The translations under genes and the position numbers were made by a program. The notes beneath the pieces were generated by a model. It was given only the letters and a program-made list of their open reading frames with translations. It was not told the DNA's origin and made no database searches. From a virus (lineage: Duplodnaviria; Heunggongvirae; Uroviricota; Caudoviricetes), in IMG/VR virus record IMGVR_UViG_3300012208_000002: 39,058 nt of DNA; one strand, 5' to 3'. Below, one piece after another: positions 10,216 through 34,609 of this stretch. Each line of letters begins with the position of its first letter. The stretch's first letter is position 1.

Positions 10216-10277
10216 GAAAGTTTAAAATAAGACTTGACAAACTTTCGAGTTTGTGAGACACTAGACAGGTCAAAAGT
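10213..10277 (+). promoter_or_regulatory. tRNA-array promoter copy 1 (TTGACA 10234-10239, GACACT 10257-10262)
   Basis: near-identical repeat at 10401-10463; spacer hairpin ACAAACT-TTCG-AGTTTGT. Confidence 0.75.
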
Positions 10278-10282
10278 TCAAT

Positions 10283-10357
10283 GGTGAGCGTCGTATAACG
10301 GTAGTACTTCCGGCTGTGAACCGGATAGCACGGGTTCGACACCCGTCGCCCACCCCA
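10283..10357 (+). tRNA. trnH: tRNA-His (GTG)
   Basis: cloverleaf, G-1/C73, CCA. Confidence 0.9.
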
Positions 10358-10400
10358 AGTTCTTTCTGGCAGTCAGGTCCTATCCCTAGATTGCCGGATG

Positions 10401-10463
10401 AAGAAAGTTTAAAATAGTGCTTGACAGAATTTCGATTCTGTGAGACACTAGACAAGTCAAAGT
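10401..10463 (+). promoter_or_regulatory. tRNA-array promoter copy 2 (TTGACA 10421-10426, GACACT 10444-10449)
   Basis: repeat of 10213-10277; spacer hairpin ACAGAAT-TTCG-ATTCTGT. Confidence 0.75.
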
Positions 10464-10487
10464 AAACTTTAATTCGAAAGGACTACT

Positions 10488-10634
10488 GTGGAATACAAAG
10501 TTACGTTAACTCAGAAAGTCAAAATCGAAGTAGAAGCAGAGACACCGCAGTCAGCGCTAGAACAGGCTAAGGCTCAAGCCACAGCCGATAACAGAATTTT
10601 TGAACCTGACACATTTTCAGTAAAAGAACAGTAA
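10488..10634 (+). CDS. 48-aa protein MEYKVTLTQKVKIEVEAETPQSALEQA... (DpnD/PcfM-like pattern)
   Basis: read manually; AAAGGA RBS, GTG start. Confidence 0.65.
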   Translation: MEYKVTLTQKVKIEVEAETPQSALEQAKAQATADNRIFEPDTFSVKEQ

Positions 10635-10642
10635 GAAGTTTA

Positions 10643-10716
10643 CCTGCTTTGATGTATCGGTCGCATCCTCGCCTGAAGAGCGAGTCGAGCTAGTTCGATT
10701 CTAGCAGGCAGGACCA
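10643..10716 (+). tRNA. trnF: tRNA-Phe (GAA)
   Basis: cloverleaf, loop CTGAAGA, CCA. Confidence 0.88.
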
Positions 10717-10722
10717 AGTTTT

Positions 10723-10810
10723 GCGTCTGTGGATGGAATTGGCAGACACGTCGCTCTCAAAAAGCGATGCCCTAAACGGCGTGGGAGTTCGAGTCTCCCC
10801 GGACGCACCA
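10723..10810 (+). tRNA. trnL: tRNA-Leu (CAA)
   Basis: cloverleaf with variable arm, CCA. Confidence 0.93.
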
Positions 10811-10817
10811 AGATTGA

Positions 10818-10914
10818 AATCGTGAGCACAGCGGAAGCGTCAACTTCTCGGGTGCTTGTTCATTTACAGCGTTGACGCGCTCATGTGAATAAGGGTTCGA
10901 TTCCCTCACGGATA
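10818..10914 (+). ncRNA. tRNA-like RNA with T-arm and oversized central stem-loop, no CCA
   Basis: AGGG-TTCGATT-CCCT; AATCGTG/CACGGAT; GCGTCAAC/GTTGACGC. Confidence 0.45.
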
Positions 10915-10922
10915 TTAGATTT

Positions 10923-11014
10923 AGTCTCATAGCACAACGGCAGTGCAGCGGCCTTATACACCGTAAGCTCCGGATTGGAGCGTGATGTAGGTTCGAATCC
11001 TACTGAGACTACCA
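10923..11014 (+). tRNA. tRNA with TAT anticodon (nominal Ile) and long variable arm
   Basis: 7/5 cloverleaf, loop CTTATAC, V-arm GCTCC/GGAGC, A73, CCA. Confidence 0.8.
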
Positions 11015-11019
11015 GTTTT

Positions 11020-11106
11020 GTGGCTGTGATGGAATAGGCAGACAGCAATCACTTAAAACGATTGGCTCGAAAGAGCGTAGGGGTTCAAGTCCCTTCAGCC
11101 ACACCA
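11020..11106 (+). tRNA. trnL: tRNA-Leu (TAA)
   Basis: cloverleaf with variable arm, CCA. Confidence 0.9.
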
Positions 11107-11112
11107 AGTTTC

Positions 11113-11187
11113 GCGCTTCAAGTGTTACGATAGCACAGCGGGCTCTTAACCCGTCGAGACTCAGTTTAATTCTGAGGAGGCGCACCA
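11113..11187 (+). tRNA. trnK: tRNA-Lys (CTT), non-canonical D/T loops
   Basis: cloverleaf, T-loop TTTAATT, CCA. Confidence 0.85.
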
Positions 11188-11192
11188 AGTTT

Positions 11193-11256
11193 CGGGTTCT
11201 CACTTCGTTGTTCGGGTGAGGTAATTGGCGAACGGATACGTAGCCGATTCCTGAGA
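11193..11256 (+). ncRNA. putative three-way-junction structured RNA
   Basis: CTCACTT/GGGTGAG and ATTGGC/GCCGAT hairpins closed by TCGGG/CCTGA. Confidence 0.35.
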
Positions 11257-11263
11257 AAGTTTT

Positions 11264-11339
11264 GGACTGCTACGTCAAAGGCAAGACTACGCGCCTTTTA
11301 AGCGCTGGAATCTCCGTTCGAGTCGGAGGCGGTCCACCA
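11264..11339 (+). tRNA. trnK: tRNA-Lys (TTT)
   Basis: cloverleaf, CCA. Confidence 0.9.
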
Positions 11340-11343
11340 AATT

Positions 11344-11434
11344 TCCCATCGGTGTGAGAACGCACCGTTCGCTTTCAAGGCAGAAGCGGCGTCATTCCGT
11401 TCGACTCGGATTCGCGGCGAAGTTCACGATGGGA
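11344..11434 (+). ncRNA. tRNA-like RNA with TCA in an anticodon-like loop and an extra hairpin, no CCA
   Basis: TCCCATCG/CGATGGGA, D-like GTGT/GCAC, loop TTTCAAG, TCCG-TTCGACT-CGGA. Confidence 0.5.
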
Positions 11435-11442
11435 TTAAGTTT

Positions 11443-11539
11443 CATGGGAATACAGTTCGGAATTACATCGAACAGTCGTCGGGAAGACTAGTCAGTACCG
11501 CCGAAAGGACGGGGCGAGAAACCCCGGGTTCCCAGACCA
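11443..11539 (+). ncRNA. cryptic cloverleaf RNA ending in ACCA with 8-nt anticodon-like loop
   Basis: TGGGAAT/GTTCCCA, GTTCG/CGAAC, AGTC-GTCGGGAA-GACT, CGGGG-CGAGAAA-CCCCG. Confidence 0.5.
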
Positions 11540-11541
11540 TT

Positions 11542-11679
11542 ATGTATATTGATTACGAAAGTTTTTCTGCTGAATCTCTCGCCGAGGATCGGGAAAAGAT
11601 GTGGCAAGATATTGTAGATGAACTTTATGAAAAGTTAAACGGAGAGGTTGGGGCAACAGGTCGCCCTACTCGGCTGTAA
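11542..11679 (+). CDS. 45-aa acidic micro-ORF ending inside tRNA-Tyr
   Basis: read manually; no clear RBS. Confidence 0.4.
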   Translation: MYIDYESFSAESLAEDREKMWQDIVDELYEKLNGEVGATGRPTRL

Positions 11680-11729
11680 CCCGAGAGTCCCTTGGGACGT
11701 TATAGGTTCGAATCCTATTCTCTCCACCA
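11641..11729 (+). tRNA. trnY: tRNA-Tyr (GTA)
   Basis: cloverleaf with variable arm, CCA. Confidence 0.92.
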
Positions 11730-11730
11730 T

Positions 11731-11804
11731 ATTCGACTCGTTCAACGGTAGGACCCGCGTCCGATTAACGCGGTATCAAGGTTCGAATCCTTGGTCGAAT
11801 ACCA
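11731..11804 (+). tRNA. trnI: tRNA-Ile (GAT), atypical anticodon loop CCGATTA
   Basis: cloverleaf, CCA; C33 and U37. Confidence 0.8.
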
Positions 11805-11807
11805 ATT

Positions 11808-11936
11808 ATGACGTACGAAGAAAAAGCAGAAGCATTGAATAAACATGCTGACTCGTGTCCGCAATGTAACCTATCACGGAAGTGTAGTGATACTCGCGGA
11901 TGCTGTGAAGAAGGTAAAAAGATTTTGGGCTGTTAG
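11808..11936 (+). CDS. 42-aa Cys-rich micro-ORF (CPQC...C...CC) ending inside tRNA-Ala
   Basis: read manually; no clear RBS. Confidence 0.45.
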   Translation: MTYEEKAEALNKHADSCPQCNLSRKCSDTRGCCEEGKKILGC

Positions 11937-12000
11937 TTAAGTGGGATAACGGTTGCCTTGCACGCATCAGTCGGGAGTTCGACTCTCCCACGGTCCACCA
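11927..12000 (+). tRNA. trnA: tRNA-Ala (TGC)
   Basis: cloverleaf, G3-U70, CCA. Confidence 0.92.
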
Positions 12001-12008
12001 ATTTCAAT

Positions 12009-12083
12009 ATGCTGCTGGCAGATCGGCAGATGCACTCGGTTTACACCCGAGACAGCGGGGTTCAACTCCTCGGCGGCATACCA
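12009..12083 (+). tRNA. trnV: tRNA-Val (TAC)
   Basis: cloverleaf, CCA. Confidence 0.9.
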
Positions 12084-12159
12084 GTTTAATGATCGTCTTG
12101 CTGTAGACCGGAAATAAGCAGCCTCCGTTTAGGGAGTAGCGCAAACTCCTCCATATTTT

Positions 12160-12235
12160 GGGCTTGTCATCTAACAGGACAAGGTTCAGGTCTACGAAAC
12201 CTGCAATTACGGTTCGAGTCCGTACAGGCCCACCA
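12160..12235 (+). tRNA. trnR: tRNA-Arg (ACG)
   Basis: cloverleaf, A20, CCA. Confidence 0.92.
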
Positions 12236-12240
12236 AGTTC

Positions 12241-12315
12241 GGACTGTTCGTTCAATGGATAGGACACCGCGCTTCGAACGCGGCTATAGGGGTTCGAATC
12301 CTCTACGGTCTACCA
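12241..12315 (+). tRNA. trnR: tRNA-Arg (TCG)
   Basis: cloverleaf, A20, CCA. Confidence 0.92.
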
Positions 12316-12345
12316 AGTTTATGTAGTGCGATGCGTTGGCCCTAA

Positions 12346-12465
12346 GTGCGGTTGACAGGGGCATCTGGCCCAGATTATTACGCCTGACGAAGCGAAAGCA
12401 GAAACTCGAAAGAGTCGCGTGGAGTCCTCCCATCTGGGAAATAAATGAGGACCTAAAGACCGCAC
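12346..12465 (+). ncRNA. type I hammerhead ribozyme core (12378-12422) inside a closed structured RNA
   Basis: CTGACGA, GAAA, GTC triplet, stems I and III paired; outer GTGCGGT/ACCGCAC. Confidence 0.65.
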
Positions 12466-12474
12466 AAATTTTAT

Positions 12475-12549
12475 TGGTGGTTCGTCTAATGGTAAGACGC
12501 TCGGCTGTTAACCGTGAAGATGAAGGTTCGAATCCTTTGCCACCAGCCA
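12475..12549 (+). tRNA. trnN: tRNA-Asn (GTT)
   Basis: cloverleaf, G73, CCA. Confidence 0.92.
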
Positions 12550-12554
12550 TTTAA

Positions 12555-12628
12555 GCCGAATTAGTATAGTGGTAGTACGTCGAGCTTGTACCTCGAAAGT
12601 GAGCGTCCGATTCGTTCATTCGGCTCCA
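12555..12628 (+). tRNA. trnT: tRNA-Thr (TGT)
   Basis: cloverleaf, T-loop TCCGATT, CCA. Confidence 0.9.
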
Positions 12629-12636
12629 GTCTCTCA

Positions 12637-12772
12637 GTTGTGCGGATAGTATCGTGCGATAGTTGGCCGAAGTGATGTGAGAGCATCCTCGGATACATCC
12701 CTCACGCTGGCTACCATCCAATGACGGTAGGCACCGTTGCTTTCGAGTAACGAGTAACGCCAGTCGCACAAC
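12637..12772 (+). ncRNA. putative multibranched structured RNA (136 nt)
   Basis: GTTGTGCG/CGCACAAC closing stem, GATGT/ACATC, CTGGC/GCCAG, CTACC/GGTAG, GTTGC/GTAAC. Confidence 0.5.
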
Positions 12773-12782
12773 AAAGATTTTT

Positions 12783-12856
12783 GCACTTATGATCTAATGG
12801 TATGATGCCGCTTTCGTAAAGCGGACGTGGTGGTCCGATTCCATCTAGGTGCTCCA
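12783..12856 (+). tRNA. trnT: tRNA-Thr (CGT)
   Basis: cloverleaf, T-loop TCCGATT, CCA. Confidence 0.9.
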
Positions 12857-12869
12857 GTTTAGGAGTAAG

Positions 12870-13031
12870 ATGATTGACAAGATTATTTTTGGATTACAAG
12901 CAGGAAGCTTCTCTTTGATGCTGGTCCTGTTAATCTTTTTCAAAGCGTCTTACGGTTTGATGATTTCGACTTTTGGTTTGCATGCTCTTGCTGATACATT
13001 GTTCGTACTACGCAGTAAAGGAGTACTATGA
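12870..13031 (+). CDS. small two-helix membrane protein (MIDKIIFGLQ...)
   Basis: AGGAG RBS before ATG 12870; hydrophobic. Confidence 0.65.
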   Translation: MIDKIIFGLQAGSFSLMLVLLIFFKASYGLMISTFGLHALADTLFVLRSKGVL

Positions 13032-13216
13032 ACCTATCAACGATTCTGAGTTCTGTAGACAAGTACATTAAGATCAAGTCCTGGCTTCAGTTTGTTGGTT
13101 ACATGTTAGCGTTCGGCGGATTGGTATTCATCGAACACCCGCTCGCAAAGATAGTAGCGTACGTCGGTTTAGGCGTCAGCATGGCAGGATTTTTGTACGA
13201 CATGATTTATCCTTAA
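13028..13216 (+). CDS. small two-helix membrane protein
   Basis: AGGAG RBS, ATGA overlap, hydrophobic. Confidence 0.7.
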   Translation: MNLSTILSSVDKYIKIKSWLQFVGYMLAFGGLVFIEHPLAKIVAYVGLGVSMAGFLYDMIYP

Positions 13217-13223
13217 GAGTTTC

Positions 13224-13284
13224 GCGGTCGCAGTGGCTATTCCGGCGCTGTGCTAAGTGGGAAGTCCGATGCCTTCTAACCGCC
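13224..13284 (+). ncRNA. short tRNA-like remnant or structured RNA ending in CCA
   Basis: GCGGT/ACCGC, GCAGTG/CGCTGT, GAAG-TCCGATGC-CTTC. Confidence 0.3.
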
Positions 13285-13291
13285 AGTATTC

Positions 13292-13365
13292 GCTTCGATG
13301 GTTCAATGGTAGAACGGGTCCTTGGTAAGGATCAGACTACAGTCCGATTCTGTATCGAAGCTCCA
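13292..13365 (+). tRNA. trnT: tRNA-Thr (GGT)
   Basis: cloverleaf, T-loop TCCGATT, CCA. Confidence 0.92.
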
Positions 13366-13387
13366 GTAACTTGTCCGAAAGGGCATA

Positions 13388-13463
13388 GGAAGTTTTAAAC
13401 AGTTAGACGCGCAAGCGGACCTTACAGTCGAAAGACGGGACGGACCCTTAGTAAGGAACTTCC
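13388..13463 (+). ncRNA. putative GNRA-rich multibranched RNA
   Basis: GGAAGTT/AACTTCC, CGC-GCAA-GCG, CCTTAC/GTAAGG, GTC-GAAA-GAC, GGG/CCC. Confidence 0.5.
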
Positions 13464-13477
13464 GAGCATTTAGTTTT

Positions 13478-13552
13478 GGTGCTAGGGTCAGTTGGTAACG
13501 ACGAGCCCCTGTCACGGGTTAAGTCCGGGTCCGATTCCCGGTAGCACCGCCA
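13478..13552 (+). tRNA. trnD: tRNA-Asp (GTC)
   Basis: cloverleaf, G73, T-loop TCCGATT, CCA. Confidence 0.92.
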
Positions 13553-13565
13553 GTTTAGGAGACTT

Positions 13566-13646
13566 ATGATTATAGGAATTCTCATAGGTGTCATAGCATT
13601 AGTTGTGTTCTTGTACATGATAAAAGGTATGGGATACAAAGAGTAA
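13566..13646 (+). CDS. 26-aa single-pass membrane peptide MIIGILIGVIALVVFLYMIKGMGYKE
   Basis: read manually; AGGAGA RBS. Confidence 0.6.
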   Translation: MIIGILIGVIALVVFLYMIKGMGYKE

Positions 13647-13650
13647 TTAC

Positions 13651-13724
13651 GGCCCTGTCGTCTAAAGGCAGGACATTTGCTTCTCAAGCAAGCGACGGCG
13701 GGTCAGTACCGCCCAGGGCCTCCA
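13651..13724 (+). tRNA. trnE: tRNA-Glu (CTC), atypical T-loop GTCAGTA
   Basis: cloverleaf, CCA. Confidence 0.85.
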
Positions 13725-13763
13725 ATTTAAATTTCATATCAATTGACCGGAGGGTCTAAGTAT

Positions 13764-14186
13764 ATGAGTAGTTCAGATAACGATAGGAACAGACGCAGGA
13801 GTGACTTCTTAGGTGTGTCGTTTAGTACGGCCACATTTAAATTAAGAAAGAAAATTTTATTCCATCTTCTTAAAAAGCACCAAGAAGATGTTTGCTCTCA
13901 GTGCGGTAAAAAGATTGAGACGATAGAAGAATTGAGTATTGAGCATTTAAAGCCGTGGGAAGGAATTTCTGTTGACCTGTTTTGGGATATCGAAAACATA
14001 GCGTTTTCTCATATTCGTTGTAATGTACCGCATAAATACAATAACGGTCAATTAAAGCCCAGGCCCGACGGAGCAGACTGGTGCGGCCCAGGGCAGCATT
14101 TCGCTCCCGTTGAAGATTTTTACAAGAGCAAATGGTATCATACAGGAAGGCAGAAGTGGTGTAAAATTCACCGTCCTGCTAGATAA
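13764..14186 (+). CDS. HNH endonuclease-like protein
   Basis: CSQCG...SIEHLKPW...NIAFSHIRCN; GGAGG RBS before MSSS. Confidence 0.8.
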   Translation: MSSSDNDRNRRRSDFLGVSFSTATFKLRKKILFHLLKKHQEDVCSQCGKKIETIEELSIEHLKPWEGISVDLFWDIENIAFSHIRCNVPHKYNNGQLKPRPDGADWCGPGQHFAPVEDFYKSKWYHTGRQKWCKIHRPAR

Positions 14187-14194
14187 TTTTGAGT

Positions 14195-14280
14195 TTGCAC
14201 GTTACTGTTTTGGCTTCAGCATGCGTTGAGAGTCAAGGCGTCAACTGAGACCGTCTACCGCATGTAGAACGGGAGTGCAA
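14195..14280 (+). ncRNA. putative pseudoknotted RNA
   Basis: TTGCAC/GTGCAA, GTTGA/TCAAC, CCGT-CTAC-CGCAT-GTAG-A-ACGG; loop CGCAT complementary to upstream ATGCG. Confidence 0.45.
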
Positions 14281-14287
14281 TTAATAT

Positions 14288-14362
14288 GGCGATATCGTCC
14301 AGTGGCTAGGACGGGTGACTTTCAATCACCAAACCAGGGTCCGATTCCCTGTATCGCTACCA
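14288..14362 (+). tRNA. trnE: tRNA-Glu (TTC)
   Basis: cloverleaf, T-loop TCCGATT, CCA. Confidence 0.92.
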
Positions 14363-14411
14363 ATATGTTTCACTATACGGACACATGTGTCTTTATAGCG
14401 AGATAAGTAAT

Positions 14412-14496
14412 GCGCTAGTGGTGGAACGGCAGACACGCCAGTCTTAGAAACTGGTTCTGAAAACGAGTGGGGGTTCAAATCCCTCCTGGCGCACCA
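14412..14496 (+). tRNA. trnL: tRNA-Leu (TAG)
   Basis: cloverleaf with variable arm, CCA. Confidence 0.93.
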
Positions 14497-14505
14497 AATT
14501 TCTGT

Positions 14506-14580
14506 TGCGGTGTATAGTTCTGGTGAACTTCGAGGTCTCATAAGCCTTGCAGGAAAGTTCGATTCTTTTCGCCGCTACCA
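14506..14580 (+). tRNA. trnM: tRNA-Met (CAT), initiator-like
   Basis: 1:72 mismatch (T/T), loop CTCATAA, CCA. Confidence 0.8.
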
Positions 14581-14585
14581 ATTTA

Positions 14586-14663
14586 CGCTGAGAGGTCCAC
14601 CGGAAAGTGGACGGCGGTCTCATAAACCGTAACAGGTTGGTTCGACTCCAACTTCAGCGACCA
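14586..14663 (+). tRNA. tRNA with CAT anticodon (elongator Met or Ile2)
   Basis: cloverleaf, D-stem extendable to 6 bp GTCCAC/GTGGAC, CCA. Confidence 0.85.
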
Positions 14664-14669
14664 ATTCGA

Positions 14670-14743
14670 GCGGCTGTGGTTCAGTGGTAGAATTCGTCCT
14701 TGCCAAGGATGAGATACGGGTCCGATTCCCGTCAGCCGCTCCA
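14670..14743 (+). tRNA. trnG: tRNA-Gly (GCC)
   Basis: cloverleaf, U73, T-loop TCCGATT, CCA. Confidence 0.92.
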
Positions 14744-14752
14744 AGTTCACGC

Positions 14753-14820
14753 GCCTGTCAAGGCATTGGGGTCGCCCCAGAATACTGACCTTCCGACTAG
14801 TAAGCCCGCGAGGGGACTAG
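14753..14820 (+). ncRNA. three-hairpin structured spacer
   Basis: GCCT/AGGC, TGGGG/CCCCA, CTAGT..CCC-GCGA-GGG..ACTAG. Confidence 0.3.
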
Positions 14821-14830
14821 CAAAAATTTT

Positions 14831-14929
14831 ATGAGCAAAGAAAAAGAATGTTTAGATTGTAAAGTTCCAGTACGTGAGTCCTCAGAAGGACTTCGAAACG
14901 AAGACGGAACTTTTCATATCTGTAAATAA
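14831..14929 (+). CDS. 32-aa micro-ORF with CxxC...HxC (MSKEKECLDCK...)
   Basis: read manually; fills spacer exactly. Confidence 0.45.
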   Translation: MSKEKECLDCKVPVRESSEGLRNEDGTFHICK

Positions 14930-14934
14930 GTTTT

Positions 14935-15008
14935 GCGGGTGTGGTATATAGGTTGTGCCCTGGCCTTCCAAGTCAGAGAAACGAGTCCGAGTCTCGTCAC
15001 CCGCTCCA
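14935..15008 (+). tRNA. trnG: tRNA-Gly (TCC)
   Basis: cloverleaf, U73, T-loop TCCGAGT, CCA. Confidence 0.9.
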
Positions 15009-15013
15009 AGTTT

Positions 15014-15087
15014 AGGCTGTTAGGACAATGGTAGTCTACTCGCCTCCAAATCGAGTGATGGGAGTTCAATTCTCTCACGGCCTGCCA
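15014..15087 (+). tRNA. trnW: tRNA-Trp (CCA)
   Basis: cloverleaf, G73, CCA. Confidence 0.9.
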
Positions 15088-15096
15088 AATTTGCAA

Positions 15097-15197
15097 ACGC
15101 TGCTGGTCAGCGGTGTTAGCGGGGTTAGCGCCCCGATGACCTATTTCGGTAACTTCCGAGCGCCTTATGCCGGGCGAGATGGCTTGAAACCCAAGGC
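15097..15197 (+). ncRNA. putative multi-hairpin RNA
   Basis: CGCTG/CAGCG, CGGGG/CCCCG, TCGG/CCGA, CGCC/GGCG hairpins in series. Confidence 0.35.
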
Positions 15198-15208
15198 TAT
15201 AATTTTAT

Positions 15209-15284
15209 GGTCCCGTGGTCTAACGGAAAAGGCAACAGCCTTCTAAGCTGAAAGATGAGTGTTCGATTCACTCCGGGACTACCA
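15209..15284 (+). tRNA. trnR: tRNA-Arg (TCT)
   Basis: cloverleaf, CCA. Confidence 0.92.
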
Positions 15285-15289
15285 GTTTT

Positions 15290-15365
15290 GGTTCTGTAGC
15301 TCAAACGGAAAGAGCATCTGCCTCCTAAGCGGGAGATGACGATTCGAGTTCGTCCAGGACCACCA
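15290..15365 (+). tRNA. trnR: tRNA-Arg (CCT)
   Basis: cloverleaf, CCA. Confidence 0.92.
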
Positions 15366-15372
15366 GTTTTAT

Positions 15373-15677
15373 TTTGGTAAGCCAGACTGTCGCGGGAAAC
15401 CGAGGAACTTCTGGACATCACTAGACAGAGAGCCGTGGAAGTTGCGGGCCGAGTAATCGGACGGGTAAGGCTTCGTATGTAAGCGAGCGCTGACATTGCA
15501 AAATGTCATCGAGCGCTGACATCATTCAAGCGAAGGCACTCCACTCTCGATGCAATCTCAAATAGGGCTGGAGCGCGTCTAGCGTTATGATAGCCGGGTT
15601 GAGAGCAAAGACGGATGACAGTCAGGTTGACACCTAACAGTGGCGACCGACAGAATCCAGGGTATCGGCTAACCAAA
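15373..15677 (+). ncRNA. rnpB: RNase P RNA (compact, bacterial A-type-like)
   Basis: P1, P2 GACTGTC/GACAGTC, P4 GAGGAACTTCTGGA with TCCAGGGT, CTCCAC...GCAA...CAAATAGGG, ACAGAA 3' motif. Confidence 0.85.
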
Positions 15678-15684
15678 GCATTAC

Positions 15685-15771
15685 GGAGAAGTGGCGAAAT
15701 GGTAGACGCAACGGTTTGCTAAACCGTCGTACCGAAAGGACGTGGGAGTTCAAGTCTCTCCTTCTCCGCCA
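15685..15771 (+). tRNA. trnS: tRNA-Ser (GCT)
   Basis: cloverleaf with variable arm, G73, CCA. Confidence 0.93.
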
Positions 15772-15778
15772 ATTTAAT

Positions 15779-15869
15779 GGAGCGCAGTCGGCAATGGTGC
15801 CCCACTGTCTTGAAAACAGTACTATCCCTTATAAAGGATAACGGAGTTCGATTCTCTGGCGCTCCTCCA
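15779..15869 (+). tRNA. trnS: tRNA-Ser (TGA)
   Basis: cloverleaf with variable arm, U73, CCA. Confidence 0.88.
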
Positions 15870-15875
15870 TTTAAT

Positions 15876-15952
15876 GTCTCAGATGCTGAAGCGGTCGAAG
15901 CGGAAGTCTGCAAAACTTCTCTTAGTCAGTTCGAGTCTGACCTGGGACTCCA
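15876..15952 (+). tRNA. trnC: tRNA-Cys (GCA)
   Basis: cloverleaf, U73, CCA. Confidence 0.9.
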
Positions 15953-15959
15953 ATTTTAT

Positions 15960-16034
15960 TGGCTTGTCGTCTAATCGGTAGGACGAAGGACTTTGAATCC
16001 TTCTATCCAGGTTCGAGTCCTGGTGAGCCAACCA
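15960..16034 (+). tRNA. trnQ: tRNA-Gln (TTG)
   Basis: cloverleaf, U1-A72, CCA. Confidence 0.9.
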
Positions 16035-16041
16035 TTTCAAT

Positions 16042-16116
16042 TGCCCGATCATCTAATTGGTAGGATAGCGGACTCTGAATCCGCGCATCTAGGTTCGAGT
16101 CCTAGTTGGGCAGCCA
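16042..16116 (+). tRNA. trnQ: tRNA-Gln (CTG)
   Basis: cloverleaf, U1-A72, G73, CCA. Confidence 0.92.
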
Positions 16117-16208
16117 ATTTAGCAACACACTGAACAGAGGCTTCGCTAATCCCGAAACAGTGTACATCCTTGTAAGTGCTCTGCCAAGTATCAAGGATGA
16201 GGTGCAAG

Positions 16209-16964
16209 ATGAGAAAATTTCTTGCGTTGTTCACATTAGCTACTTTACTTGTCCTGGGCGGTCTTCTTGTAAAGCCCTGGAATTCATACGAGCCCGAAGC
16301 ACGACTCGCATCTGGTGCGATGTTTTCAGGCAGCGACCGTAGTTTTCACTGTTCTGGCACTGAGATCGGCGCTACAGCAGACGGCGGTGGGATATTCCTG
16401 ACCGCACGTCACTGTGTAGCCGACCCACAGACAAATAAGCTTAACGAGCACTTCGCCGTCTCATTCACAGATAACCAGGGTGGTCCGTTTTATGACGCCA
16501 CGCCTATTGCGCTATCTTTGAGCGACGACCTGGCTCTGCTCTACGTAAAGAATGGCGCTGGTATTCCACAGGTCCGAATTAAGGACGAGCGCAGTCTCCG
16601 TAGTGGCGACCCGATATTCAACGTCTCGTTCCCATTGGGCACGGGCAAGGAACTGTTCCACGGCGAGTACATGCGTGCGAGCTTCCCGACGTTCCCTAGT
16701 ATCATAGCAAGTTATCCGCAGTGGCTGTACGCTATGCCGATGAACATGACTATCGCGCACGGTTCAAGCGGAAGCGGCGTGTTCAGTAATAAGCAGCGTG
16801 CTCTTATTGGAGTTGCCGTAGGAACCTTCGAAGAGGGAACTTACAATATCGCAATTCCAGCAGACCGTGTCCTGGACTTTCTAAACGATTTGAAAGACAA
16901 CACGGTGGAGAAGTTTAAGTATGCTTTTCCAGAAAAAGAACCTAACGAATTCATGATGTTTTAA
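16209..16964 (+). CDS. trypsin-like serine protease with N-terminal membrane anchor/signal
   Basis: LTARHC, DDLALL, HGSSGSG triad motifs; MRKFLALFTLATLLVLGGLLV. Confidence 0.85.
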   Translation: MRKFLALFTLATLLVLGGLLVKPWNSYEPEARLASGAMFSGSDRSFHCSGTEIGATADGGGIFLTARHCVADPQTNKLNEHFAVSFTDNQGGPFYDATPIALSLSDDLALLYVKNGAGIPQVRIKDERSLRSGDPIFNVSFPLGTGKELFHGEYMRASFPTFPSIIASYPQWLYAMPMNMTIAHGSSGSGVFSNKQRALIGVAVGTFEEGTYNIAIPADRVLDFLNDLKDNTVEKFKYAFPEKEPNEFMMF

Positions 16965-16970
16965 TTTTAT

Positions 16971-17059
16971 CGGGGTGTAGTTCCGTAATCTGGCAGCGGT
17001 CTCGCTTTGGAAGCGAGTGGTTAATACCCTTGGAGGTTCAATTCCTCTCACCCCGACCA
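16971..17059 (+). tRNA. trnP: tRNA-Pro (TGG) with extra nucleotides before the D-stem and enlarged variable region
   Basis: CGGGGTG/CACCCCG, loop TTTGGAA, CCA. Confidence 0.8.
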
Positions 17060-17106
17060 TTTTGTTCGAAGAAGTATAGTACTTGGAGTGTAGTATAGGA
17101 GCGCAA

Positions 17107-17391
17107 ATGAACGTTATATCTATGGTAGCTAATCTTGTCAAAGAACGAGATTACTACAAAGAATCATTCATAGAGTGTCAAGCTATCATTAAACAGTTAG
17201 CTGAAGGTCCTGGCGATATCGAATACATTCATCCATTTGATATGTATGATATTCTTAACTCAACGGACGCTAGTGAATTCATCGATGTTTACACGGGTCC
17301 GAAGGATGAAAGAACTTTTACGTTAGGTAAATCTGGAAAGAAATACAAGCAATCTCAGTTCATTCCAGCAAAGTCGAAAAATTTTAAGTAA
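17107..17391 (+). CDS. hypothetical protein
   Basis: AGGAG RBS before MNVISM. Confidence 0.7.
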   Translation: MNVISMVANLVKERDYYKESFIECQAIIKQLAEGPGDIEYIHPFDMYDILNSTDASEFIDVYTGPKDERTFTLGKSGKKYKQSQFIPAKSKNFK

Positions 17392-17392
17392 T

Positions 17393-17471
17393 CGAGAAAT
17401 AGAGGAGCCTGGCTTATCTCGCCCCGTTCGGAACGGGGAGCACGCTGGTCCGAATCCAGCTTTCTCGACCA
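17393..17471 (+). tRNA. trnP: tRNA-Pro (CGG)
   Basis: cloverleaf, T-loop TCCGAAT, CCA. Confidence 0.9.
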
Positions 17472-17477
17472 TATTAT

Positions 17478-17503
17478 AGCCGCCTGATACTTGGGCGGCT
17501 TTT
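17478..17503 (+). terminator. rho-independent terminator closing the tRNA array
   Basis: GCCGCCT/GGGCGGC then TTTT. Confidence 0.7.
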
Positions 17504-30127: not shown

Positions 30128-32479
30128 ATGCTAGCGGGACAGGAAAAGAGGGATTGGGAGTTTGTAAGCTATCGAGCAAAGAAGCAGATGGCACTCTGGC
30201 CCAGGTTGGTCAGGGGAGAAGCCGAAGGACTCGATCTTTCTGGGGTAGACCCTGAAATTCTTGCTTGCTGCGTTGAGGGAAAAAACTTCCGAAGCGAAGG
30301 TCACGTTAGTCCTGTAGACGGAACGGGCCGTATAAAGTCTCCGATGGAAGAGATGTGGCTACTGTACATCGGCGTACAGAGCATATCTGAAGAAGACGAA
30401 GCACGCGGCAAGGATAAGCCTGAGTCCAAGACTAAGGCCAAATCTAAGCCTAAGAAGTCGAAGGATCGGGATGACGAAGCGATAGAGCCTATCAAGGCCC
30501 GTCGAGTAGTAGGTCATCAGATTATCGATAAGGATTCAAATCCTACGGATCAGTGGTCTTACGATTCCGTTCAGTGGATTAATGACAAAACAGGAAAGCC
30601 AACTGGGGGAATTAACGCCTACGGCGGAATTCATTTCCACGATGACGGCTATCTTGATTTTTCAGCGTGGCTGTATGCTAGGGACCAGGCTCGAAAAGAC
30701 CTTCTCTGGTTTAACGTCGCCGTACTGGGGAACACTAAAGTAAACAGAGCAACTCATCAAATTGTATGTAATCAATTCGTTCAGAAGAATTTTGATGGGG
30801 TGTATAGGCGTGGATATTCTTTGGACGTGGTCCAGGCATCTATCGGACGCCAAAATCGAATTCCTGTTCAGTGGAATCCGGTTATTAAGAATTACGAACC
30901 CATTCTAGAAGAAGCATCGATTCCAGAGAATTTAGAGTCGATGATGATTTTGCTGTACCCTCGTGGATTTTTCAAGTCCACTATCGGTCGTGCAGACGCG
31001 GTCCAATGGCTGTTGAATTGCCCTGACATATCTATGATGATTATGACTGCGGCCCGCGACCTAGCGGCCCAGTTCGTTTTGGATATAAAAAGGCAATTTT
31101 ATTTAGCGAAAGGCGCAGACCCGAAAGCACTTCATTTACTATTCCCTGAGTATGTTCTTCGCGGAGTAGACGGAACTTCGGCTGAAGACTTAATTTGCCC
31201 TGCTCGCCGCCGTGAACGCATTTACCCAACTTTATGGGCTGATAGTATTGATTCTACACTTTCTGGGTGGCACTGCGATTTATTGAAGTTTGATGACGCG
31301 GTCTCAAACACTAACTGTCTTACAGACACGACCAGAGAAAAACTTCGTGGCAGTATCGATAACACCCTGAACTTATGCGATCCTTGGGGCAAAGTCGATA
31401 TGCTAGGAACCAGATACTTCCCTGACGATTATTACGGAACCCGTTTTGATAAGTATATCGAAGAACCAGAGACGGCGGGATTGAAGTTTTTTGTTGGCGC
31501 AGCATGGTACGTTAAATCAGAGTTCATTCATATCGAGAGAAAAAGTCTCAGAGATTTGATGGAACATATGGTTATTCTGACGTTCCCAGAGCACGCCTCT
31601 TTTAAGTCTCTTCGCGGAAAACTGGTTAACAATGAGCAAGAATTTCGTTGCCAGCAGTTAAATCAACCTGTGTGGGGAGCAGGCAAGGTTGATCTTCCTC
31701 TTGCACTTCTACAAGCCCACATGATGTTGCCTACAGAGGCTAAGGCTCTGAAAGGCGATGTCCTCATTATGGGCGACATGGCTAAAGAGGCCAAGAAAAA
31801 CTCAGATTACTCCGCCTTCGTTGCCGTAAAGATTTTTCAGAGAATAGACCAAGCAACAAATACACCGATAGGTCCTGTCTCTGTTGTGGTTCTTGAAGTC
31901 GTTTACGGAAAGTGGAGTCAGTCAGAAACAGCAAACAGTCTTGCAGAACTAAATAAAAGATGGCTGCCGTGGCGTATTCAGATTGAGAATACAGGTGGTC
32001 TAGAGTCTTTTATGACTTACGCCATACCGGATGCATTTAAGAAAACCAACTTGCCTTGGCATCATATTTATTGGGCTGCTGTTGAGCAAGGTTTCGATGC
32101 AAAGCGTAATCGTATTAAGGGTCTAGAAATTCTTCTCAAGGCAGAACGATTGTGGTTCTCTATGGGTCCTTGGAATGACGAAACTTTCTCCCAACTGAGT
32201 CAATACACGGGCGCAAAGAGTACTCGAAGCAGAAAAGATGATATACCAGATGCTATGGCATTCATTTCTAAATACCTGCCTAGCAGCACTCCGAAGACAC
32301 CCGAAGAACAGGAACAGGAAGCAAATCAAGCCGAAAAAGAGATGATGGCAAAATTTCTGGCGGCGCAGCACGAAGCATATTTTGGCAATAGTAATCCCAA
32401 CTTCGCACCACAACAAATAGAGGAATCCCCGATATCTTCTCCGTATGACGACATTAAGAAGAAGTTTTTGGGAAGATAG
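30128..32479 (+). CDS. terL: terminase large subunit with N-terminal extension
   Basis: PRGFFKST Walker A, FDDA Walker B, MGDMA..SDYSA and KDDIPDA nuclease motifs. Confidence 0.9.
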   Translation: MLAGQEKRDWEFVSYRAKKQMALWPRLVRGEAEGLDLSGVDPEILACCVEGKNFRSEGHVSPVDGTGRIKSPMEEMWLLYIGVQSISEEDEARGKDKPESKTKAKSKPKKSKDRDDEAIEPIKARRVVGHQIIDKDSNPTDQWSYDSVQWINDKTGKPTGGINAYGGIHFHDDGYLDFSAWLYARDQARKDLLWFNVAVLGNTKVNRATHQIVCNQFVQKNFDGVYRRGYSLDVVQASIGRQNRIPVQWNPVIKNYEPILEEASIPENLESMMILLYPRGFFKSTIGRADAVQWLLNCPDISMMIMTAARDLAAQFVLDIKRQFYLAKGADPKALHLLFPEYVLRGVDGTSAEDLICPARRRERIYPTLWADSIDSTLSGWHCDLLKFDDAVSNTNCLTDTTREKLRGSIDNTLNLCDPWGKVDMLGTRYFPDDYYGTRFDKYIEEPETAGLKFFVGAAWYVKSEFIHIERKSLRDLMEHMVILTFPEHASFKSLRGKLVNNEQEFRCQQLNQPVWGAGKVDLPLALLQAHMMLPTEAKALKGDVLIMGDMAKEAKKNSDYSAFVAVKIFQRIDQATNTPIGPVSVVVLEVVYGKWSQSETANSLAELNKRWLPWRIQIENTGGLESFMTYAIPDAFKKTNLPWHHIYWAAVEQGFDAKRNRIKGLEILLKAERLWFSMGPWNDETFSQLSQYTGAKSTRSRKDDIPDAMAFISKYLPSSTPKTPEEQEQEANQAEKEMMAKFLAAQHEAYFGNSNPNFAPQQIEESPISSPYDDIKKKFLGR

Positions 32480-32488
32480 GAAACCTAA

Positions 32489-34609
32489 ATGACGGAATCG
32501 TTAAACCAGCACGCGGCTGAAACTCTAGAGAGTAGGGCAGTCGATCCTGTAGGCGATATAACGTCAGAGAACATGAAGAAGGACCAGGATACTGGGACTT
32601 ACATGTACGATGACGGAGCAGCATTAAAACTAGTTATCGATGACGCTGCACGCGCCGATCAGTACGCAAACATAAACCAGTGGTCGAGCGCATGGACGGA
32701 ATCCGATATTATTTTGCAGAGCCCGCGTCAAGCTTCGGCTTTCGACGGTGGTAACGTAGCTCAGGCAAACGTTCCGAAGTTTACGCTTTCAAATCACATT
32801 AGTTCGATTGTTCCTAAAGTCATAGAGGGTTTGTTTTATGAAGACCCCCCGTTCATACTTCGTCCGCGCCCTGGCACAAAGCAAGAAGTAACACGGGCAA
32901 AGACCGCTCTGTTCTCCGCGCAACTTTGGGATATGAAGTTTCAAACCCAGTTGAGACGCGGCACAGAGCAGATGGCTCTTCTGGGCACCACGATATTCAA
33001 GTGGGGCTATCTTGAGCACGACGATCAAATCAAGAGGGCTCGTCGTAAAGCATCCCAGGTAACTCTTAATACAACGATTCCGGTTCCAGCAATCGATACC
33101 CCGGACTCTGACGATTTCGAAACCTACGTTGAAGCAGTAAAGATTTCTCGTCCGTGGATTAGGTTCTGCGATATCCGTACAGTCCTTGTGGACCCTGGCT
33201 GTCGTGTTGGTGATATCCGTGAAGCAAAGTGGGTCATCTATAGAGATTATGTAACGTACGATGATCTGAACAATCTGCGAGCAATTCCAGGCTACAACAT
33301 CCTGAGCGAAGAAGACCTGAAAGCATTCTTCTTGTCTGGTCCAACAGTGGGCGCGGACAACATCAGCATGACTATCCCGGAAGGTATGCGCGGATACTTG
33401 CAGCATGCCCTTCCTAGAAGCTTCAAGACCAGTGCCGATCCTTTGCAGGCACCGATGGAACTTCTTGAACGTTGGGACAGAGATAAAGTTATCGTTATAC
33501 TGTCTTTCAACGGTCAAAACATTTTACTTAGAAATGAACCTAACCCATACGGCAAGTTGCCGTTCCTTAGCGCAAACTGGAGAGACCTTCCAGATAGCTT
33601 TTACGGACAGGGCTTAGGACAACTTATCGGGGCAGAACAAATCGTTGAGCAAGGGATAACGAACCTAGCATTAGACCTACTTGCCTATGGTTTGCAGCCC
33701 ACAGCAGTTCGAAAGAAGGGCTTCAACGTTCCTACTCAGATGACGCGCTGGAAGCAGGGCGGCATAATTGATGTGGACGATGACGTGGAGAAGGCATTCA
33801 AGTTTTTGACGATGCCCCCGGTCCCAGGCGAAGCTTGGCAATTCTTACAACAGGCAAGAGCCGCCGCGCAAGAGACTTCAGGCGCAAACGAACAAGTTAT
33901 GATGGGCGCTGGTTCTGCTGGCGTCAAGACAACAGGAATGCGTTCTGGTACGGGCGCAGCAGCCGTGGTACAGGCTAATGCATCTAGATTGGACGGCCCT
34001 AGCAGCCGCTTGGTAGAACAGGTTTTCGAACCCTGGATTTACCAGATGGACGAACTGAATAATCTGTTGCTTCCGACAAAAGTTCTACGCCGCATATTGG
34101 GCGAAGAATTGGGTATGGTTTACGAAGGGGATCATATCGAGTTTCGTAATGCGAAATTCGAATATGAGGTTCTGGCAGGAGCGCACTTGGGCGCAAAGAA
34201 GGAAATGGCCCAGGCTCTTCCAATCATAATTCAACTTTTGAATAATCCTACATTTACGAAACTTGTTAATGAGGCTCAATTCACATTTGATGCGGTCGCT
34301 ATTTTCAAGGCATTTACTGACGCAGCGGGCTGGAAGTTCAGTCAAGATTTCTTGCGCCAGATGACGCCAGATGAATCGCAACGCTATCAAGCCAACTCTC
34401 CCGCAGCCATGCAAGCGCAGCAATTGCAGGGGCAGAAGGATATGCAGGAACGAAAGTTCCAGCAAGATCGAATTCTTGAAGATGAGAAGTCGCTCGGAAA
34501 GGCTGGAGCAGAGGCACTTCGATCAGCAACTGAACATAGTTTGAGTATGGAGCAAACAGGGGAACCAAGTAGCAATCCTCAGTCCTTCGGATCAACAACA
34601 ACGTTATAG
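32489..34609 (+). CDS. portal protein (P22-like)
   Basis: 706 aa after terL; NPYGKLPF, FYGQGLGQLI, Q-rich C-terminal barrel. Confidence 0.85.
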   Translation: MTESLNQHAAETLESRAVDPVGDITSENMKKDQDTGTYMYDDGAALKLVIDDAARADQYANINQWSSAWTESDIILQSPRQASAFDGGNVAQANVPKFTLSNHISSIVPKVIEGLFYEDPPFILRPRPGTKQEVTRAKTALFSAQLWDMKFQTQLRRGTEQMALLGTTIFKWGYLEHDDQIKRARRKASQVTLNTTIPVPAIDTPDSDDFETYVEAVKISRPWIRFCDIRTVLVDPGCRVGDIREAKWVIYRDYVTYDDLNNLRAIPGYNILSEEDLKAFFLSGPTVGADNISMTIPEGMRGYLQHALPRSFKTSADPLQAPMELLERWDRDKVIVILSFNGQNILLRNEPNPYGKLPFLSANWRDLPDSFYGQGLGQLIGAEQIVEQGITNLALDLLAYGLQPTAVRKKGFNVPTQMTRWKQGGIIDVDDDVEKAFKFLTMPPVPGEAWQFLQQARAAAQETSGANEQVMMGAGSAGVKTTGMRSGTGAAAVVQANASRLDGPSSRLVEQVFEPWIYQMDELNNLLLPTKVLRRILGEELGMVYEGDHIEFRNAKFEYEVLAGAHLGAKKEMAQALPIIIQLLNNPTFTKLVNEAQFTFDAVAIFKAFTDAAGWKFSQDFLRQMTPDESQRYQANSPAAMQAQQLQGQKDMQERKFQQDRILEDEKSLGKAGAEALRSATEHSLSMEQTGEPSSNPQSFGSTTTL

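Follow-up and report, generated by a model that had tools for sequence, protein, structure and literature searches.

Hammerhead ribozymes of type I (Rfam RF00163) combine a set of core bases and an NUH cleavage triplet with three stems, of which stem I is open. Among bacterial and phage examples, natural hammerheads with a stem II of only 2 bp and with a U·U mismatch at positions 10.1/11.1 have been reported, and a compensatory U3-A8 change in the core is reported to be compatible with activity (Perreault et al. 2011, PMC3088659). In RAGATH-1 (RF03152; PMC11300833) a hammerhead core is joined to an A-rich strand and to a pseudoknot in which loop II pairs with an additional stem-loop on helix I; the periphery is part of the ribozyme. 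The HRIMA-1 type SGC non-circularly permuted hammerheads (Eckert et al. 2023, PMC10085705) are naturally permuted and carry several pseudoknots around the hammerhead core. A divergent prokaryotic hammerhead cluster, 1,533,398, lies below all six Rfam thresholds, and its description (bioRxiv 10.64898/2026.10.21.760802) gives a three-stem motif only and no host RNA. Theta ribozymes, which are minimal HDV-like ribozymes, lie at phage tRNA 3' ends, from which their 5' edge is at most 1 nt away; these tRNAs represent many isotypes and are mostly CCA-less. They form a double pseudoknot, and the base that precedes the 5' edge is variable (Kienbeck et al. 2024, PMC10879173).

The element described here occupies positions 12333-12466 of the window (the whole stretch of 39,058 nucleotides that was analysed) and consists of a hammerhead inserted into a second RNA, which we call the host RNA. 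The insert shares with type I hammerheads their core bases, the NUH triplet, a layout of three stems with stem I open, and a stem II of 2 bp, with U3-A8 in some relatives. It differs from them in an A·A opposition at 10.1/11.1 and in having no conserved loop II contact and no Rfam match; moreover, it sits inside an independent RNA, a conserved motif of which doubles as stem I. A hammerhead core, a pseudoknot and an A-rich strand are also found together in RAGATH-1, but loop II of our element is free and varies between copies, and its periphery is also found where the core is absent; membership of that class was rejected because the pseudoknots run between host loops only and persist without the hammerhead. 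Unlike HRIMA-1 type SGC, the insert has its core in the ordinary type I order, and it is the host RNA that permutes. Cluster 1,533,398, likewise prokaryotic and below the Rfam thresholds, is set apart from our element by its description alone and may overlap with it.

Taken alone, the hammerhead is only a variant of type I, and the novelty rests on the host RNA, which on comparative grounds appears to be a new structural class with more than 250 members, distributed over numerous unrelated phages. No Rfam 15 family matches the element, its hammerhead-less copies (E<=5) or its hammerhead-bearing copies. A literature search by conserved words and by concept found no description of the host RNA; supplementary motif lists and subscription papers were outside its scope, so a prior listing is possible.

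The hammerhead insert and its setting

A terminase (30128-32479) and a portal (32489-34609) lie in the window, which belongs to a large phage and contains a tRNA array (10284-17471) of at least 33 tRNA genes. The element is flanked upstream by tRNA-Arg(UCG), which encodes its CCA (12241-12315), and downstream by tRNA-Asn(GUU) (12475-12549), both on the plus strand, as are all parts of the element itself. The same array contains a phage-encoded, bacterial-type class A RNase P RNA (15374-15680; 104 bits, threshold 100), an HNH endonuclease gene (13743-14186) and a trypsin-like protease gene (16176-16964). Two similar promoter-like repeats (10230-10265 and 10420-10455; TTGACA, then a common GAGACACTAGAC block) lie on its upstream side, and a single terminator-like hairpin (17478-17500) closes it. 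One tRNA-Ile of 92 nt (10923-11014) has a TAT anticodon, which is rare among bacteria. Other non-tRNA spacers are foldable and have no Rfam match (11190-11263, 11345-11540, 12085-12158, 12630-12782, 13368-13476, 14195-14287 and 15090-15205); the one at 11345-11540 ends in a tRNA-like CCA and the one at 12630-12782 is closed by a long outer stem.

The hammerhead insert spans 12378-12416. Stem I pairs 12378-12383 with 12417-12422 (6 bp including two G-U pairs), the CUGAnGA core lies at 12384-12390, and stem II (12391-12400) begins with A·A followed by two G-C pairs and a GAAA loop. The segment 12401-12415 comprises the core GAAA (12401-12404) and a 4-bp stem III with the A15.1-U16.1 pair (U12415). 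The GUC triplet at 12414-12416 satisfies the NUH rule, so that C17 is C12416 and cleavage is predicted between 12416 and 12417. The letters that the earlier note had described (core, stems, GUC, a GTCCTC/GAGGAC hairpin and two 7-bp pairings) are all present where it placed them, and its proposal of a variant hammerhead is borne out by relatives: covariation is seen in stems I and III, the core is conserved, U3-A8 occurs in three copies and the 2-bp stem II with A·A recurs. Comparison thus confirms 12378-12422 as a putative type I hammerhead in variant form.

A loose hammerhead motif is frequent by chance. The strict type I descriptor matched the window at this site only, against one match per 300 dinucleotide shuffles. 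An exact search with the 22-nt core recovered six viral contigs, four of them with the whole flanking layout and compensatory changes and one with the topology only; the sixth is a hammerhead of type III whose stem II likewise has A·A. Type III hammerheads that stand alone and have an A·A, 2-bp, GAAA-capped stem II were also seen just 5' of genes (L006, L007, L020, L030, L031, L037, L049, L065, L074, L079, L116, L118 and L120); they comprise 12 distinct sequences, mostly with a GUGUG-type loop I, and several stand beside canonical hammerheads.

Conservation of the core in homologs, named in the earlier note as a point on which its reading could fail, was found across 116 copies within the host RNA, with C3-G8 replaced by U3-A8 in three, phage Gaia among them. 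The triplet is GUC in 72 of these, GUA in 30, GUU in seven and AUA in five. The first pair of stem I, between the first base of the host's domain B (N_B) and the hammerhead strand, is Watson-Crick in 96/96, four pair types being represented. Of 75 copies examined for its length, 44 have a stem I of just 3-4 bp. Such conservation and covariation make it very likely that the hammerhead is under selection for catalysis.

In place of the usual R10.1-Y11.1 pair the window has A·A, which the earlier note had entered as a caveat. Among the 116 copies G-C is commonest at this position (52), followed by A·A (28, a count partly inflated by the initial search patterns) and U·U (18). A·A was also found in copies selected solely on their flanks and in the 12 distinct stand-alone type III hammerheads, and stem II, 2 bp in the window, ranges from 2 to 5 bp among A·A copies. 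Given this recurrence and the published U·U exception (PMC3088659), we take A·A as a natural variant and not as grounds for exclusion. Neither its occurrence nor activity data for it were found in searchable papers. Loop II varies freely across copies, with no conserved contact seen; a GAAA tetraloop receptor for it was considered and rejected, both for this variability and because copies that lack the hammerhead keep the candidate bases. The host helix P2, by closing a loop around the hammerhead, may replace the tertiary contact between loop II and stem I. Since a conserved loop II contact and activity data for A10.1·A11.1 were not found, the window hammerhead may be slow. In a nearest-neighbour fold of the window, by a model without pseudoknots, its stem I has a pairing probability of only 0.14-0.36.

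The Rfam hammerhead models, put forward in the earlier note as a check, gave no match at the window site even at E<=10 and no gathering-score match in 20 hammerhead-bearing loci, copies with a canonical stem II included. A search of the hammerhead loop for other ribozyme classes led to their rejection, the long inserts being hammerheads with a long stem III or plain hairpins; in L626, L640, L645 and L652 stem III carries an extended hairpin of about 45 nt.

The host RNA

Comparative analysis indicates that the flanks of the hammerhead, within 12333-12466, are a separate RNA of about 100 nt with two cross-pseudoknotted hairpin domains, A and B. A model built from hammerhead-less copies only matched the window in two pieces, 12329-12380 and 12383-12467, on either side of the hammerhead. 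The earlier note had set the element at 12346-12465; the hammerhead does lie inside that range, but the element starts at 12333 and the independent nature of the flanks had been missed.

Domain A starts with the motif N-C-G-Y-K-G (12333-12338; N_A = G12333), followed by hairpin P1 (12339-12362), in which 12339-12343 pair with 12358-12362 with covariation. The P1 loop contains the 5' strand of a pseudoknot, PK (12346-12352), and UGACA (12353-12357). PK pairs with 12459-12465 over 7 bp, with a mutual information of 1.5-1.9 bits per pair; this is the pairing that had been taken for an outer stem, and it exists, but as a pseudoknot with the loop of the overlooked hairpin P1. The junction AUCUGG (12363-12368) is conserved across copies, an invariance that is partly a product of the search patterns. 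It leads to the 5' strand of P2 (12369-12375), which pairs with 12432-12438 and closes the loop containing the hammerhead.

Domain B opens with N-C-G-Y-G-G-A (12417-12423; N_B = G12417), which is also the 3' strand of hammerhead stem I; in all hammerhead-bearing copies the predicted cut falls immediately 5' of N_B. Hairpin P3 (12424-12452; 12424-12429 with 12447-12452) contains in its loop the 3' strand of P2 and an A-rich segment (12439-12446). The 3' junction, the PK 3' strand and a conserved A complete the element (12453-12466). Covariation across copies defines four helices: the hairpins P1 and P3, and the helices PK and P2, in which the loop of each hairpin pairs with the tail of its counterpart. 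Among 61 hammerhead-less copies, pairing holds for 92.7% of helix cells, whereas shuffles gave 67.4% (0/500) and slid controls 34-49%; P2 is paired in 99.7% of cells and has compensatory changes at all six pairs. A further tertiary pair, K-M, links the fifth base of the domain A motif to the A-rich loop (U12337 to A12445 in the window); it is Watson-Crick in 250/251 copies. The two domains follow one plan: N-C-G-Y opens the domain, a 6-bp stem follows whose loop carries a pseudoknot strand, and beyond a short junction lies another pseudoknot strand, which ends in C followed by A. The predicted fold is one of pseudo-two-fold symmetry.

We collected 251 distinct copies with the domains in the order A-B, 116 with a hammerhead and 135 without, and a further eight in swapped order (B-A), the counts with and without a hammerhead being shaped by the search patterns. 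A sample picked on domain B alone carried a hammerhead in about three quarters of cases or more. In a search on the flanks only, about 29/35 short-insert matches have a linker of 2-6 nt in place of the hammerhead, and more hammerhead-less copies occur in viral and metagenome contigs. Near-identical hosts with and without the hammerhead (86-93% identity) provide a built-in control. Comparison thus shows that the host RNA occurs independently of the hammerhead, which is an optional insert.

Among cultured phages, the hammerhead form is carried by Arthrobacter phage Constance and by Mycobacterium phages Gaia and phiGD24-3, and Microcystis phage Mwe-JY26 carries the host RNA without a hammerhead. 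BLAST of the window element against cultured phages returned short pieces only, whereas a hammerhead-less query returned carriers; a B-A query found no match in them. Stand-alone single domains were rejected, as each domain B had a domain A or was interrupted by the contig end. A divergent subtype (L003:2400-2670, L078, L108 and L085) has the same cross-pseudoknot topology and a hammerhead with other junction sequences, and is usually trailed by a GGAAAGAC-loop hairpin that also follows the main-type copies L173, L196, L206 and L211.

The window copy is intact for all four host helices, for K-M and for N_A = N_B. It has an A at 12439, a position with an otherwise constant G, and a P1 of only 5 bp, shared with its close relative L176, and for these reasons may be impaired. 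L176 also lies in a tRNA array and keeps the element with a canonical stem II.

Candidate readings of the host RNA

Our preferred reading, to which as a whole we give a little less than an even chance, is that the host RNA self-cleaves at its 5' edge in a theta-like manner and that the hammerhead opens the twin site. The hammerhead step is its most secure part and is probable for the family, slightly less so for the window copy. The hammerhead would cut after C12416 during transcription, with P2 holding the short stem I in place, and the B strand would then be released into the host fold. The host would cleave just 5' of the N of domain A (12332/12333), needing a purine at -2 and accepting any base at -1; in the manner of theta ribozymes, this would release the 3' end of a tRNA or mRNA lying upstream. 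The two N-C-G starts would then be equivalent sites of processing, brought together on the symmetry axis, and with a hammerhead present the product would be in two pieces (84 nt and about 50-58 nt in the window), joined by P2 and PK. No known catalytic motif could be mapped on the host RNA.

The position of the host RNA relative to tRNAs is consistent with cleavage at its 5' edge. N_A lies exactly 1 nt past the discriminator in 15/31 cases that follow a CCA-less tRNA, compared with 7/105 tRNA-tRNA spacers (Fisher P 6e-7, relatedness ignored), and this register spans ten tRNA isotypes. The spacer after CCA-less tRNAs is 1 nt in these 15 cases, against 1, 3 and 2 cases at 0, 2 and 3 nt. Gaia and phiGD24-3 have the same 1-nt register, and only one CCA-encoding tRNA has the host directly after its CCA. 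The base at -1 of N_A is free, and -2 is a purine in 196/230 copies that do not adjoin a tRNA (85%). This subset, 15/31 of the CCA-less cases, has its 5' edge within 1 nt of a tRNA 3' end as theta ribozymes do; the window copy, which starts 20 nt downstream of the tRNA-Arg(UCG) discriminator, lies outside the register.

The 1-nt spacer could merely reflect loss of spacer DNA, which is possible because a tRNA-tRNA junction needs room for RNase P and a tRNA-host junction does not. A C at tRNA position 74 was not significantly enriched over CCA-less controls (14/15 vs 77%, p 0.10), and its enrichment was therefore rejected as proof of a host cut site. An intron that completes the CCA was likewise rejected, since the terminal C-A is general to the PK end and no 3' splice signal was seen.

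The likeness to theta ribozymes covers phage carriers, the 5' edge beside mostly CCA-less tRNAs of many isotypes, the double pseudoknot and the variable base before the edge. Unlike theta, the host RNA has two cross-paired hairpins and no P1.1, P3 loop, P4 or J4/2 cytosine; it comes mostly from environmental and not gut phages, can hold a hammerhead and is naturally permuted. Classification as HDV-like or theta was rejected, as the nested P1-P1.1-P2-P3-P4 fold with a catalytic C in J4/2 was not found and the covariation topology differs. The order of A-rich loop, helix, CUAG and pseudoknot strand resembles the junctions of pistol ribozymes, but the strand order differs from that of pistol, in which GCG, P3 and a G-U cut site ahead of P2 come after a P1 loop pseudoknot, the first base of the CG motif is variable and there is no Rfam match, so pistol was rejected too. 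A SAM-II or other H-type riboswitch was rejected for want of an Rfam match and of a consistent downstream gene, and glmS and twister on topology and Rfam.

The strongest rival, less likely than self-cleavage of the host and on balance unlikely, is a non-catalytic structured RNA that binds protein or blocks a 5'-3' exonuclease. Protein RNases would then generate its 5' end as tRNAs are processed, the hammerhead would provide a nick or a free end where there is no tRNA to do so, and N_A = N_B would be a symmetric homo-pair at the two-fold axis. Consistent with such a division of labour, a tRNA lies near 17/43 of the hammerhead-less but near only 20/98 of the hammerhead-bearing viral copies (p 0.02), a weak anti-correlation between hammerhead and tRNA, but 26/43 hammerhead-less viral copies have no tRNA nearby. 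The non-catalytic reading leaves unexplained both the spacer peak at exactly 1 nt and the conserved purine at -2.

The permuted copies bear on the same question. All eight B-A copies (L128:3500-3740, L236, L631, L634, L655, L660, L663 and L685) start with a 5' hammerhead whose predicted cut precedes N_B, which suits a non-catalytic host whose 5' end is supplied by the hammerhead, although they represent few related lineages. In most of them the two domains are connected by a hairpin, from where B ends to where A begins, and the gap from the PK end to N_A is short.

The two N positions carry the same base. N_A equals N_B in 241/251 copies, 112/116 with and 129/135 without a hammerhead; in an earlier set the figure was 225/234, compared with 78 in shuffles. 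No Watson-Crick partner in the alignment accounts for this identity. Where two copies lie in tandem in one genome (L469:230-445 and L413:2560-2880), N differs between them and matches within each, and each has its own K-M pair. Covariation of this kind, by identity and not complementarity, is unusual and leads one to expect a symmetric non-canonical pair or else strand exchange. Since it holds without the hammerhead and without a Watson-Crick partner, it suits the direct N·N contact of the non-catalytic host. The identity and the permuted copies also count in favour of our preferred reading.

Strand exchange is improbable in our judgement. Both sites would be cut and re-joined crosswise, giving an 84-nt circle (C17 to N_A, domain A with the hammerhead) or upstream RNA spliced to domain B, and N would match so as to fit one site. 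Hammerheads can ligate a 5'-OH to a cyclic phosphate, and the circular permutation and short gap of the B-A copies suggest that the ends lie close together. The hammerhead strand of stem I pairs about equally well with the A and B motifs; equal pairing, however, is automatic given N_A = N_B, and the identity is equally strong without the hammerhead. Site B lacks the -2 purine of site A. Most carriers have no RtcB (present in 7/50 carriers vs 1/49 controls, all of them large genomes, so that genome size confounds the comparison), and RtcB was rejected as an obligate partner.

Because the 3' strand of stem I is the conserved start of domain B, the hammerhead and host folds would compete for it, and conditional behaviour is plausible. 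Such competition, together with a stem I of so few base pairs in many copies, would also suit a natural aptazyme, in which the symmetric host binds a small ligand that sets the B strand in the host fold or in stem I. We regard this as very improbable, even though the host has many invariant junction bases and a pseudo-two-fold layout comparable to that of two-site riboswitches: more than half of the copies in our collection lack the hammerhead, many lie between tRNAs, no Rfam riboswitch matches, and the downstream context has no consistent gene, terminator or ribosome site.

Least likely, and largely refuted by comparison, is a stand-alone hammerhead that is gated by a local hairpin and helps to cut the tRNA polycistron, as the earlier note had proposed, or else a decayed, functionless copy: the motif does lie within a 33-tRNA array, the window copy has a change at one otherwise constant base, and the local hairpin (12363-12375), the competing partner described for CCCAGAT, can form in the window, but this hairpin is present in only 4/251 copies, so that gating by it is not supported. 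Nor is a role in cutting the tRNA polycistron: in 78/98 viral copies with a hammerhead the surrounding 300 nt contain no tRNA, and the predicted window cut falls 58 nt before the next tRNA and within a larger RNA. The intact host features of the window copy and the maintained element of L176 speak against decay.

Possible meaning for phage hammerheads and tRNA maturation

Returning to the self-cleaving host, we tentatively propose, at a confidence just below that given to the reading above, a new self-cleaving ribozyme class, two-fold pseudo-symmetric and naturally permuted, that matures phage tRNA 3' ends. With the hammerhead it would become a two-ribozyme device whose matched N-C-G ends allow re-joining to a small circle or a spliced RNA, a step that by itself we hold to be improbable. 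The purpose of hammerheads in bacteria and phages is a long-standing question, and here the hammerhead would have a fixed substrate, since it would open one particular RNA in its linker and at a defined base. The cultured carriers Gaia (Mycobacterium smegmatis) and Constance (Arthrobacter globiformis) make the hammerhead and host readings testable. If the host RNA self-cleaves, it would represent a new class of nucleolytic ribozyme and would add a second, independent RNA-based way of making tRNA 3' ends.
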